Assembly: GCA_031549535.1 (NCBI GenBank)
Contig: JAVBPP010000024.1
Span: forward strand, 10,180 to 74,179
DNA length: 64,000 bases
Direction of reading: 5' to 3'
From: Oscillospiraceae bacterium
GTDB taxonomy: Bacteria; Bacillota; Clostridia; Oscillospirales; Acutalibacteraceae
In this document: one piece after another, positions 33,967 through 55,305 of the stretch
Layout of the letters: the number at the start of each line of letters is the position of its first letter
Position numbering within the stretch: position 1 is the first letter of the stretch
Made by a program: the position numbers and the translations under genes
The notes under the pieces: model-generated
The model's input: only the letters and a program-made list of their open reading frames with translations
The model's database searches: none
What the model was told of the DNA's origin: nothing

Positions 33967-34100
33967 TTCGGATGATTTATGTGGCGTGTGGGTCCTGTGC
34001 GACGGGGCGCTGTGAACCATGTCAGGCGGGGAACCGAGCAGCATTAAACAGTCAGCACTGTGCGCCACAGTCTGCCTGCACGTCACATAAATCACCCGAA
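33967..34100 (+). ncRNA. ffs: signal recognition particle RNA (small bacterial SRP RNA)
   Basis: The terminal helix pairs 33967-33985 with 34082-34100. The conserved domain IV core is TGTCAGGCGGGGAACCGAGCAGC with a GGAA tetraloop. It sits in the classic Firmicutes position upstream of dnaX. Confidence 0.75.
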
Positions 34101-48208: not shown

Positions 48209-48385
48209 GTCCGATGACGGTTCCCTGTGGCAAACGGCATCCACCGAGAACGACGGTGCGCCCGGTGTGCGCACCCTACGGCGATATGCCCCGCAAATTC
48301 TGCAGATGCCGTCCGGGCAGCCAATCCTGGCCTCCCTCGCCGAGGGAGGTGTCCCCGCAGGGACGCAGGGAGTCCCCGGGGTGCT
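48209..48385 (+). repeat. RF-C GC-rich mosaic palindromic element (single unit)
   Basis: Contains, in order, the modules CCGATG-N-CGGCATCC, GGTGCGCCCGGTGTGCGCACC (48255-48275), CCTCCCTCGCCGAGGGAGG and GTCCCCGCAGGGAC, as in the arrays at 50.9 kb and 55 kb. Confidence 0.8.
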
Positions 48386-50900: not shown

Positions 50901-51383
50901 AACGGCAGGCGGCCAAGGCCGGCCTCCCTCGCCGCGGGAGCTGTCCCCGCAGGGACGGAGGGGGTCGTCAGCGTTCCGATGCCGATCGCCTGCAGCAGAC
51001 GGCATCCAAAGGGAACGACGGTGCGCCCGGGTGTGCGCACCCTACACGATATGCCCCGCAAATTCCGCCGATGTTGTTTAGGCAGCCAATCCCCGCCTCC
51101 CTCGCCGAGGGAGCTGTCCCCGCAGGGACGGAGGGGGTCGTCAGCGTAGCTCCACCGGGTAAAAAGCGGACGACGCCCACGTCGTCCCGATGCCGGTTCT
51201 CTCCGGCAGAGGGCATCCAAAGGGAACGTCGGTGCGCCCGGGTGTGCGCACCCTACACGATATGCCCCGCGATTTTCGCCGCTCCGTCCGGATTGCCTGG
51301 TAGATGCCGGTTCCCTGTTGCAAATGGCTTCCACCGGGAACGGCGGGTGACCGGGGACGCGCCCCTACAACATATGCCCACAG
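50901..51383 (+). repeat. RF-C GC-rich mosaic palindromic repeat array (about 3-4 units, one degenerate)
   Basis: Module GGTGCGCCCGGGTGTGCGCACC occurs at 51020-51041 and 51231-51252. CCTCCCTCGCCG(A/C)GGGAG plus CTGTCCCCGCAGGGACGGAGGGGGTCGTCAGCG occurs twice. A diverged unit lies at 51301-51383. Confidence 0.85.
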
Positions 51384-51500: not shown

Positions 51501-53294
51501 TCACGCAAGGATATTGCCCGTGTCCTCCGTGGGGATAACGTCATTTGGCGGCAAGGTGGGGGTATCGCTTGGCGGCGGCAGGGTGGTCGGCGGGGGCAGA
51601 GTGGTTGGCGGTTCTGTTGGTGCCGCGTCCCAGACGCGAATGGTGAGCTTGGTGCCTTTGCTGTATTTTTTCCCGGCGGTGAGGTTCATGTCCTTCACAA
51701 CGCCCTCTGTTTTTGATCCGTCGTTAGCCACTTTAATCAGATCGTAGTCAAAACCGAGCTTATCAAAGTTGGCTTTTTGGTCTGAAAATTTCTTGCCGGT
51801 CAAATCCGGAAGCTCCACAAGCTCTTTGCCGTTGCTGATGGTTAACACAATTTCGGTGCCCTGCGCAACCCGTTTGCCCGGTTCAATACTTTGCTTTATG
51901 ATGTAGTTGCTTTCCACCGTGTCACTGTAAACGTATACTTCTTTAAAGCTAAAGCGGCTCTGCAAAATCGGATCTTCCAAAACGGAAATATAGGTGCGAT
52001 CGTTGGTGAGGTTTGGCACTTCCAACAATTCGCCCTGTGCCTGGGTTACCTGGCCGGGACTGGTTGTTGTTTCTGCCACGCCGAACAAATCGTCCTTAAA
52101 AACCGTTAACGCCAGTGCCGCAAAAATCACAAGGCCAGCGCCAAGGCTGATGAGCATGGCTTTGATGATGGTGCTGCGCTGCGAATTACTCTTTTTCTCT
52201 ATTGTCGCCGGGCGCGGCCGGGGAGCTGCCGCAGTTGCAGCAGGCCTGGCGTTGGGTTGCCCTGCGCTGCTTTGCCGTGCTGCCTGCTCCAGATAGGCTG
52301 CGCCGGCTACCGAAGCGCTTGGGGAGGCGGAAAGCTCCGCGCGCAGGATATCCACGGTACGCGTGCGGTCCTCCGGCCGAATCTGCATGGCGTTCACCAG
52401 CGCGTGTATCACGTAGGCGGGTACCTGCTCCGCGACCTGGCCGGGCACCATGAGCCTGTCGTTCGTCACGCGTAGGGAGGCGTCAATCGGGTCACTGCCG
52501 GTGAGGGAGCGGTATAACACGCCCGCGAAGGCGTAAATATCCGTCCAGCTCCCCTGCTGCCCCTCAAAGCCATATTGCTCGATTGCGGAATAACCGGGGA
52601 ACAGCTGGGCGTTCAAATCACCGCGCGCCGTCCGCGCCTGCCAAATGCTGAAGCCGGAGAGCCAGACCTTGCCGTCCTGGCTCACAAGCAGGGTGGTGGG
52701 GGAGATGCCGCGATGAATGATTCCGGCGGAATGCAATGTCCCAATGGCGGAAAGCACGGGCATTAAAAGCTGCCGCGCACGCTCCCAGCTGAGGGTGCCG
52801 GTTTTGCTTTTAATGAGCAAATATTCCCGAAGGGTGTTGCCGCTGATATGTTCATAAACCGCGTAGGAGCTGTTATTCTCCTCCAAAATATCCGTTACAC
52901 TGATGAGGGAGGACAGGCCACGCAGGCGCGCGAGCTTCTGCCAAAGCTCTAAAAAACTTTGGCGGCATTCCTCAAAGGTGCGCTCACAGCCGGGCATCAC
53001 GCTTAAAAACGCGCTGTCCTGGCTGCGCTGGGCAATCGAATCCGGGAAAAACTCACGGATGCAAACGGCAATGCGCCGGTTGAGATCCCAGCCAATGTAA
53101 GTGATGCCCTCTCCGTTTTGCTCCAGGGCTTTGCCGAACAAATAGCGGTTGGCTATCACATAACGCACGGGTAAATAGGCGGCGGGCTGCGCAGCTCCAA
53201 CGGCATAACCGCAATGCGGGCACTGTTTGAGCTCCCCGATTTCCCGCATGCAGCTCATGCAAAGATGGTCGGTGTTAATCATAATATTCGGCAC
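51501..53294 (-). CDS. membrane Ser/Thr-kinase-like protein with an N-terminal zinc ribbon and two extracellular PASTA domains; predicted pseudokinase
   Basis: Zinc ribbon CMSC-x10-CPHC. A kinase fold is recognisable (WTDIYAFAGVLYRSLTG), but the motifs are HRGISPTT instead of HRDxKxxN, SGFS instead of DFG, and AVCIRE instead of VAIK. TM helix AMLISLGAGLVIFAALALTVF. Two PASTA-like repeats follow. Confidence 0.8.
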   Translation of the reverse strand: MPNIMINTDHLCMSCMREIGELKQCPHCGYAVGAAQPAAYLPVRYVIANRYLFGKALEQNGEGITYIGWDLNRRIAVCIREFFPDSIAQRSQDSAFLSVMPGCERTFEECRQSFLELWQKLARLRGLSSLISVTDILEENNSSYAVYEHISGNTLREYLLIKSKTGTLSWERARQLLMPVLSAIGTLHSAGIIHRGISPTTLLVSQDGKVWLSGFSIWQARTARGDLNAQLFPGYSAIEQYGFEGQQGSWTDIYAFAGVLYRSLTGSDPIDASLRVTNDRLMVPGQVAEQVPAYVIHALVNAMQIRPEDRTRTVDILRAELSASPSASVAGAAYLEQAARQSSAGQPNARPAATAAAPRPRPATIEKKSNSQRSTIIKAMLISLGAGLVIFAALALTVFKDDLFGVAETTTSPGQVTQAQGELLEVPNLTNDRTYISVLEDPILQSRFSFKEVYVYSDTVESNYIIKQSIEPGKRVAQGTEIVLTISNGKELVELPDLTGKKFSDQKANFDKLGFDYDLIKVANDGSKTEGVVKDMNLTAGKKYSKGTKLTIRVWDAAPTEPPTTLPPPTTLPPPSDTPTLPPNDVIPTEDTGNILA

Positions 53295-53410
53295 TCCTAG
53301 TTATTGTTGCACTTTAAACTGTGACATACAAAATAGATGCAAGTATCGTACCAAAGTTCCCGAAAAAAGTCAATTACAGGATTGTTACCGCAATTTTCCA
53401 ACGATGCATG

Positions 53411-54931: not shown

Positions 54932-55305
54932 GGGAACGATGCCCTCATCGTTCCGATGCCGCTTCCCTGCAGCAAACGGCATCCAAAGGGAACGGCGGTG
55001 CGCCCGGTGTGCGCACCCTACACGATATATGCCATAAATTCTGCCGACGCCGTTAGGCAGCCAATCCCCGCCTCCCTCTCCGAGGGAGGCGTCAGCGTCC
55101 CGATGCCGCTTCCCTGCAGCAGACGGCATTCAAAGGGAACGGCGGTGCGCCCGGTGTGCGCACCCTACACGATATGCCCCGCAAATTCCGCCGATGTCGT
55201 TTAGTCCGCCAATCCCCGCTCCCTCCCCGAGGGAGCTGTCCCCGCAGGGACGGAGGGAGTCGTCAGCGTTCCGATGCCGCTTCCCTCGGGCAAACGGCAT
55301 CCAAG
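54932..55305 (+). repeat. RF-C GC-rich mosaic palindromic repeat array (2 full units plus a partial unit)
   Basis: Units of about 147 bp (54950-55096) and 171 bp (55097-55267), then a partial third unit. Module GGTGCGCCCGGTGTGCGCACC occurs at 54997-55017 and 55144-55164. Confidence 0.85.

Follow-up and report, generated by a model that had tools for sequence, protein, structure and literature searches.

A predicted PASTA-domain pseudokinase conserved in Acutalibacteraceae and derived from a lineage of zinc-ribbon kinases

The window analysed here is a stretch of 64,000 nucleotides from an Oscillospiraceae bacterium of the family Acutalibacteraceae (assembly GCA_031549535.1, contig JAVBPP010000024.1, positions 10,180 to 74,179 of the forward strand), and the gene under study is an open frame on its minus strand, 51501..53294, with 597 codons plus stop when read from GTG. 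The ATG at 53282, which lies 12 nt downstream of the GTG, is probably the start, giving a protein of 593 residues, since the corresponding Met5 is invariant in an alignment of 44 sequences and an AGGAG box (53298..53294) runs into the GTG at 53294. From the N to the C terminus, the product contains a C4 zinc ribbon, a Hanks kinase fold, a single transmembrane helix, two PASTA domains, and a Pro/Thr tail (Table 1). The Pfam profiles recognized the kinase fold (Pkinase, 44.5 bits for a cut-off of 31.7) and two PASTA stretches (62.8 bits for a cut-off of 23.2). An AlphaFold2 model built from 44 homologues had a mean predicted local distance difference test (pLDDT) of 73.6. The small N-terminal ribbon and the N-lobe of the kinase reach pLDDT values of about 86-93. 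Beyond the kinase fold come a disordered linker, a helix spanning residues 372-397, and a pair of alpha/beta units (about 421-488 and 490-556; pLDDT about 90), and the Pro/Thr tail is again disordered. When the model was compared with the PDB by Foldseek, all matches were kinase domains, the best being PpkA (5x1r/5hnv, E 6e-18, template modelling score 0.78 normalised to the target) and the next S. aureus Stk1/PknB and M. tuberculosis PknB. The ectodomain by itself matched the PASTA regions of Stk1 (3m9g, 3py9) and PknB (2kui). The linker is basic immediately before the transmembrane helix, and these residues fit a predicted N-in, C-out orientation.

The gene had come to attention through an earlier note, made from the letters of the sequence, that described a predicted pseudokinase with the topology of PrkC-like kinases. 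That topology agrees with the results from Pfam, the AlphaFold2 model and Foldseek, which support the kinase fold, the transmembrane helix and the two PASTA domains. The motifs quoted in the note (LEQNGEGITY, AVCIRE, HRGISPTT, LSGFS, WTDIYAFAGVLYRSLTG, R310, and PPTTLPPPTTLPPP) are all present. The N-terminal C4 ribbon is also there as described, with the spacing C-x2-C-x9-C-x2-C in place of the x10 that had been given for its middle interval.

The register of the kinase fold was established with HMMER against PpkA and StkP, with MAFFT against the PrkC of the same genome, and with BLASTP against PrkC. The three independent alignments agree on one register, and a shift that would restore the catalytic Lys, Asp, Asn, and Asp is ruled out by this concordance. 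All four residues are substituted (Table 1), as the note had read them, and two of the Gly-loop glycines are also missing. The DFG motif, which had been read as SGFS, is indeed degraded, but its equivalent is G214-F215-S216 and S213 precedes it. The structural landmarks H194, the APE-like E239-Q240-Y241, T251-D252 of the F-helix, and R310 are retained. By the sequence definition, a pseudokinase lacks at least one of the VAIK Lys, the HRD Asp, and the DFG Asp; here all three are substituted. The kinase fold is without every ATP-binding, Mg-binding or catalytic-base residue, and we predict from these alignments that it is a pseudokinase. ATP binding itself appears unlikely, because the adenine-contacting Ala is lost, two acidic residues stand in the Gly loop, and the Lys-Glu pair is missing.

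Table 1. Features of the pseudokinase gene and of its predicted product; positions are those of the window, and motif substitutions are given by residue number
Feature	Position	Strand	Residues or motif	Basis
Whole open frame	51501..53294	-	GTG start, 597 aa	
Probable coding sequence	51501..53282	-	ATG start, 593 aa	Met5 conservation and sequence reading
Candidate sigma-70-like promoter	53345..53373	-	TTGACT-17-TACGAT, TG before the -10 box	Consensus match only
AGGAG ribosome-binding site	53294..53298	-	11 nt 5' of ATG 53282	Sequence reading
C4 zinc ribbon	53211..53261	-	C12-x2-C15-x9-C25-x2-C28 (C-x2-C-x9-CPxCG)	Cys conservation; pLDDT about 90
Predicted pseudokinase domain	52329..53162	-	Residues about 45-322	Pfam, alignments, model, Foldseek
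Gly loop			EQNGEG (E58, N60, E62); GEGGFG / GVGGMA in PpkA or own PrkC	
beta3 VAIK Lys			R80	
beta3 VAIK Ala			C78	
alphaC Glu			L117	
Catalytic-loop HRD Asp			G196	
Catalytic-loop Asn			T201	
DFG			G214-F215-S216	
Ala/Pro/Ser-rich juxtamembrane linker	52182..52328	-	Residues 323-371	pLDDT below 50; poorly conserved
Single transmembrane helix	52104..52181	-	Residues 372-397	Hydrophobic stretch; helix in model
PASTA domain 1	51831..52034	-	Residues about 421-488	Pfam, model, Stk1/PknB ectodomain match
PASTA domain 2	51627..51830	-	Residues about 489-556	Pfam, model, ectodomain match
Pro/Thr-rich extracellular tail	51504..51626	-	PPTTLPPPTTLPPPSDTPTLPP...	pLDDT below 50; not conserved

A protein search over 5.8 billion proteins returned 1638 matches, and the best 120 were used for an alignment of close homologues. 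These 120 proteins are full length and 48-66% identical, they come from Clostridia or Acutalibacteraceae metagenome-assembled genomes, and their source annotation is 'PASTA domain-containing protein' only. The substitutions turned out to be conserved in orthologues. In this set of 121 sequences, query included, R80, G196, and G214 occur without exception (121/121) and T201 in 117/121. The degraded motifs are themselves fixed, as N60-G61-x-G63, I-R-E, H-R-G-I-S-P, and G-F. Of the ribbon cysteines, C25 and C28 never vary, and C12 and C15 occur in 116/121, with gaps in the remaining five sequences. The activation segment is of full length and conserved, with R221 invariant and Thr or Ser at position 222 in 118/121.

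The distribution of the gene was followed in two ways. A pattern scan with one genome per species found relatives in 399 species, mostly Acutalibacteraceae, from animal guts, rumen, and other metagenome sources. A survey took one genome for each of 151 genera in the family; 149/151 genera gave a match at E<=1e-10, a tally that includes cross-matches at the level of PrkC, and roughly 135/151 gave an orthologue-level match (E below about 1e-45, with the alignment beginning at the ribbon) in an open frame of usually 540-650 codons. In-frame stops were reported in a few orthologues; in those compared (e.g. the PrkC match of G133) the alignment overruns the end of the gene. Elsewhere in the order, one family (f9) has full-length orthologues, and single PASTA-bearing dead copies occur in two further families (f11, f26). 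Twenty of the most divergent survey matches (30-38% identity) were inspected for the catalytic motifs. None of the 20 has the HRD Asp (the motif reads H-Y-A, H-L-G, H-G-A, or the like), only one has the DFG Asp, and the beta3 position is mostly Arg, with a few Lys and isolated cases of Asn or His. In a sample of 43 clade sequences (the query and 42 others, with identities as low as about 30%), the HRD Asp is missing from 43/43 and the DFG Asp from 41/43, and the catalytic-loop Asn is retained in some divergent orthologues. The dead state is ancient and is kept across the whole bacterial family and beyond.

The protein was presented in the earlier note as a paralogue of the PrkC/PknB type, and this part of the proposal did not hold. 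Many other genomes of the order and class encode proteins with the same N-terminal ribbon that are 30-37% identical across the ribbon and the whole kinase fold (residues 5-330). These active relatives retain all the motifs (LGxGGFGITY, VAIKEY, the alphaC Glu, HRDISPDNI, LLDFGA, and YAPxEQY), are 390-1380 residues long, and frequently stand in tandem arrays. In six proteins scanned for their ectodomains we found DUF5050, DUF6273 with BspA-type leucine-rich repeats, a weak solute-binding-protein-like match, or nothing annotated; PASTA was present solely on the two dead ones. A tree was built by maximum likelihood from 75 ribbon-plus-kinase regions, with PrkC as a distant outgroup. It placed all 33 PASTA pseudokinases in one group (Shimodaira-Hasegawa-like approximate likelihood ratio test, SH-aLRT, 91) and 38 active kinases in a second group beside it (SH-aLRT 84), and requires only two state changes. 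Outside the PASTA clade there are three long-branched degraded copies, two within kinase arrays and one KDSD.

The 43 clade sequences were then contrasted column by column with the 38 active relatives. The dead branch has lost G58, G60, F62, A78, K80, E117, A118, M147, D196, D214, G216, K232, and P237; among these are the first two glycines and the Phe of the Gly loop, the Gly of DFG, and the Pro of APE. Common to dead and active proteins are the four Cys, Y66, D70, E81, P84, R90, H194, F215, EQY, TDxY, R275, and R310, the four ribbon Cys being found in 42/43 pseudokinase sequences and 38/38 active relatives. W170 (43/43) and R221 (38/43) were gained on the dead branch, in addition to P39, S182, and K209. 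The Gly loop of the clade has conserved acidic residues at 58 and 62, and the position of the adenine-contacting Ala is mostly Lys or Thr and never Ala. In HMMER comparisons PpkA was the best solved relative (E 2e-29 versus 1e-15 for StkP), and the identity to the genome's own PrkC is 28%, in the C-lobe only, and 26% in the PASTA region. From these results the protein is, by sequence, a dead PASTA-bearing branch of a separate PpkA-like zinc-ribbon kinase lineage and not a degraded PrkC paralogue. A recent duplication of prkC is ruled out by the affinity to PpkA, the tree, and the low identity to PrkC. The relatives also bear on the dating of the dead state, as the sampled active ones all have other ectodomains and PASTA is found only on the dead branch.

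The active relatives of other Oscillospirales and Clostridia deserve a remark of their own. We observed tandem arrays of 3-6 active ribbon kinases with highly variable ectodomains (L105, L106, L113, L121, and L134). These have the look of receptor-kinase arrays that are diversifying, and some of them contain degraded copies of short length.

The assembly (2.56 Mb in 125 contigs, 94% complete) was searched for possible partners. It contains three Pkinase matches, namely, the pseudokinase gene, a canonical PrkC, and an APH-like protein. PrkC has 782 residues with every motif intact and is encoded on another contig in the order fmt, a predicted membrane protein, rsmB, rlmN, a PP2C phosphatase, prkC, and rsgA, where the names of the genes other than prkC and the phosphatase are presumed from our reading of the sequences. 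A genuine PrkC/PrpC pair, for which the note had advised a search, is thus present on a separate contig. PrkC is the only active Hanks kinase found in the assembly, and it is single-copy in 146/151 genera of the family. No active zinc-ribbon kinase was found in this 94% complete assembly, and such a kinase was dismissed as a same-genome partner. The third Pkinase match (contig C20) is unrelated and was read as an APH-like two-domain phosphotransferase; it is encoded on the minus strand of L003 (1366..3093), and its 575 residues were read as two kinase-like halves, one with the APH-type motif HGDYHEGN and a second with the weak Pkinase match. Apart from the two of the pseudokinase, the assembly has PASTA repeats only in PrkC, with four, and in another open frame, of 777 residues, with two. 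The sole FHA-domain protein of the assembly is a fusion of FHA with FtsW/RodA/SpoVE, a peptidoglycan polymerase of the SEDS (shape, elongation, division, and sporulation) group; the fusion has 586 residues (L135 1288..3048, plus strand, contig C115). It is a possible reader of the phosphothreonines made by PrkC.

In the window, the gene follows rarA/mgsA and precedes GC-rich repeats, and then an ArsR-family regulator and a P-type ATPase that form a cadC/cadA-type pair. The promoter candidate of Table 1 sits in the 128-nt gap after rarA. These neighbours (rarA, the cadC/cadA-type pair, and oadB) adjoin the gene in none of 80 related loci. The contexts among the 80 loci are lineage-specific, with none common to all. 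In one the gene is divergent from a cluster read as a glycogen operon, from N-terminal sequences only; in others it follows three other genes or stands beside a putative aminotransferase. A conserved operon was therefore rejected as a functional clue, as the context differs by lineage. In two genera (G098, contig C50, L090; G004, contig C11) the gene comes immediately after prkC-rsgA in the same orientation, which gives a weak hint of a link to PrkC. No type VII secretion system genes were found near the gene, and no Rfam match was found in or beside it.

The GC-rich intergenic repeat has a hairpin core (CCGATGCCG...GCARAYGGCAT) that occurs in seven copies, all on the plus strand (window positions 48211, 50976, 51187, 51301, 54953, 55100, and 55271), for 0 expected by chance. 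Two arrays, 50907-51346 and 54935-55304, each of 2-3 units of about 150-210 nt, flank the rarA-pseudokinase pair on both sides. The repeats contain many spurious open reading frames, gave no Rfam match, and look like repetitive extragenic palindromic (REP) elements or miniature inverted-repeat transposable elements (MITE). The window's only Rfam match at gathering score is a bacterial small signal recognition particle RNA (RF00169, 60.7 bits) at 33986-34084 on the plus strand.

In the reading that we favour, and whose probability we put at roughly 0.6, the product of the gene is a transmembrane receptor that works without catalysis. The product is probably a non-enzymatic wall sensor or scaffold, since the gene is kept in nearly every genus despite the loss of the catalytic residues. 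By analogy with PrkC, PknB, and StkP, the PASTA ectodomain may bind peptidoglycan precursors or fragments, or localise the protein to sites of wall synthesis, and the cytoplasmic ribbon and pseudokinase would relay the signal by binding a partner and not by phosphotransfer. Several points count against this reading. Degraded motifs do not keep some pseudokinases from binding nucleotide or catalysing other reactions, and within the clade the beta3 Lys is kept in 6/43 sequences and an Asp at the DFG position in 2/43. The confidence of the model is mixed in the C-lobe, and the activation segment (222-247) is poorly defined. The genomic context is unconserved, with prkC adjacency in 0/80 of the loci examined and 2/151 in the genome survey. 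The pseudokinase domain also evolves about twice as fast as the kinase domain of PrkC. In comparisons over the same genomes, the identity is 30-50% for the pseudokinase region versus 61-80% for the PrkC kinase domain, and because of this difference the dead domain is, to judge by sequence identity, under weaker yet real constraint.

PrkC is our leading candidate for the partner because it is the only active Hanks kinase found in the assembly. It is the likeliest one, but we name it tentatively and with considerable doubt. The pseudokinase may regulate PrkC allosterically, or it may be a docking platform phosphorylated by PrkC, in which case phosphorylation could create a site for the FHA-FtsW/RodA fusion, the genome's only FHA protein. 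The idea of a platform follows the parallel of the MviN pseudokinase, which is phosphorylated by PknB and recruits FhaA (PMC12599244). In the most complete form of the proposal, this family of gut Clostridia would have two wall-sensing PASTA receptors of separate origin, an active PrkC being paired with the dead ribbon receptor, and T/S222 or the linker, once phosphorylated by PrkC, would dock the FHA-FtsW/RodA polymerase. We consider this whole chain quite unlikely; if true, it would couple peptidoglycan sensing directly to peptidoglycan polymerisation. Such an arrangement may be likened to HER3 with HER2 and to plant co-receptors with their kinases.

The same data were weighed for other explanations. 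The protein could be a wall factor independent of PrkC, its PASTA domains targeting peptidoglycan-synthesis sites and its cytoplasmic module organizing the machinery of SEDS proteins and penicillin-binding proteins (PBP) or the divisome; or the ectodomain could be a decoy that titrates muropeptide or lipid II from PrkC and a PASTA-bearing PBP. We regard this as unlikely, if far from negligible. The gene is unlinked to prkC in almost all genomes, its kinase lineage of origin is other than that of PrkC, and the gained invariant W170 and R221 suggest a new binding surface on the pseudokinase; the PASTA proteins of the assembly are so few (PrkC, the 777-residue frame, and the pseudokinase) that competition for ligand is conceivable. 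However, conserved gene neighbourhood points to no partner, and in a pure decoy the strongly conserved cytoplasmic pseudokinase and ribbon would be needless. The protein could also be an atypical enzyme with non-canonical nucleotide binding, phosphotransfer or another reaction, as reported or proposed for WNK, CASK, SelO, and DYD. The invariance of the degraded motifs would suit such an enzyme, as would the recurrence of the beta3 Arg in DYD and ActPs2, two families that have been proposed to bind nucleotide or another ligand (PMC12599244; bioRxiv 10.1101/2025.01.12.632604). Yet this protein and the homologues close to it have lost at once all three acidic or amide residues that handle metal or phosphate, the HRD Asp, the catalytic-loop Asn, and the DFG Asp. 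Neither the alphaC Glu nor the Ala that contacts adenine is kept, the Gly loop has turned acidic, and the HRG itself varies in divergent orthologues (HYA, HLG, HGA), so that no alternative catalytic constellation is conserved clade-wide. We judge this explanation improbable.

Two further readings concern the ribbon and the fate of the gene. In one, the protein would be a regulator tethered to the membrane, in which the pseudokinase is a switch and the ribbon acts on nucleic acid or on the machinery of transcription or translation. Nucleic acids and components of the polymerase or the ribosome are frequent ligands of zinc ribbons, and the C4 ribbon is conserved and confidently modelled here. 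But the same ribbon is carried by all the active kinases of the sister clade despite their many unrelated ectodomains, which argues for an accessory of the kinase family as a whole and not for one tied to the role of this protein, and no DNA-binding domain was detected in the protein by Pfam and NCBIfam profile scans; we find this reading very improbable. In the other, the gene would be a decaying, non-functional paralogue, a pseudogene in the making. Loss of the catalytic residues and an evolution faster than that of PrkC are what decay would produce, but the frame is intact, nearly every genus has the gene, non-catalytic residues are invariant, and the origin of the clade is single and ancient. 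Decay is hardly credible, and we exclude it on account of these conservation data. The reading that we retain is that of a non-catalytic transmembrane receptor.

This is a real, conserved, and apparently undescribed family. In Gram-positive bacteria, PASTA kinases have a central part in regulating wall growth, division, and beta-lactam tolerance; bacterial pseudokinases, to our knowledge, have hardly been studied by experiment. Here a near-universal, single-copy gene of Acutalibacteraceae, a family of gut and rumen Clostridia, combines a PASTA ectodomain with a dead kinase of non-PrkC origin. Should the protein modulate or scaffold PrkC signalling, bacteria would have their own counterpart of the receptor pairs that eukaryotes form from a kinase and a pseudokinase, and models of wall sensing in abundant gut anaerobes would so far have lacked a component.

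The family had been suspected to be uncharacterised, and no description of it was found in the searchable literature; full-text searches for a PASTA pseudokinase gave nothing closer than the seven described bacterial pseudokinase families, ActPs1-3, GLW, CP1, DYD, and DLHK (PMC12599244; bioRxiv 10.1101/2025.01.12.632604). The hallmarks of these families are actinobacterial indels, a GLW motif, a COG3899 fusion, a DYD motif with HRD/DFG kept, and a DLHK motif; among them no Firmicutes PASTA protein is described, nor any with a zinc ribbon (PMC12599244; bioRxiv 10.1101/2025.01.12.632604). Judged by the published descriptions only, no hallmark or architecture fits, and membership of the present protein in any of the seven was rejected. 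The DYD family of the bacterial serine/threonine kinase atlas is membrane-associated and partly from Firmicutes, with the beta3 Lys changed to Arg, no alphaC Glu, and HRD/DFG kept (PMC12599244). The beta3 Arg and the lost alphaC Glu are common to both, whereas the present protein has neither of the two Asp residues, of HRD and of DFG, nor the Asn. EssB/YukC, a single-pass pseudokinase and structural component of Firmicutes type VIIb secretion, has three degraded catalytic motifs (PMC12599244). It resembles our protein as a single-pass Firmicutes membrane pseudokinase with degraded motifs and differs in its other ectodomain, its type VIIb secretion operon context, and the lack of PASTA and of a zinc ribbon. 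MviN (Rv3910) of M. tuberculosis, a member of ActPs3, is a membrane-bound platform linked to peptidoglycan synthesis that is phosphorylated by PknB and recruits an FHA protein (PMC12599244). As a bacterial membrane pseudokinase tied to peptidoglycan, it is the model for the scaffold reading. ActPs3 is actinobacterial, with an MviN/MurJ flippase fusion, a deletion of roughly 40 residues in the activation loop, and bulky aromatics that fill the ATP site (PMC12599244; bioRxiv 10.1101/2025.01.12.632604). It is without zinc ribbon or PASTA, while the pseudokinase described here has a full-length, conserved activation segment.

The PASTA Ser/Thr kinases (B. subtilis PrkC, M. tuberculosis PknB, S. 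pneumoniae StkP, and S. aureus Stk1) have the same topology, with a cytoplasmic Hanks fold, a disordered linker, one transmembrane helix, and PASTA repeats outside. The pseudokinase differs from them in having no catalytic Lys, Asp, Asn, and Asp and in its N-terminal ribbon. It matches NF033483, the NCBIfam equivalog for PASTA kinases, over residues 128-555 with 155.6 bits, well below the cut-off of 450. It has two PASTA repeats versus four in the genome's own PrkC, and its gene lies outside the prpC-prkC operon, unlike that of PrkC, next to rarA and the cadC/cadA-type pair. The zinc-ribbon Ser/Thr kinases of Clostridia, for which we know of no name, have the same C-x2-C...CPxCG ribbon and a transmembrane helix and ectodomain after the kinase fold, and the solved structure nearest to them is the kinase domain of PpkA (PDB 5hnv / 5x1r). 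These kinases keep all their catalytic residues and never carried a PASTA ectodomain in our sample, and the pseudokinase is the opposite in both respects.

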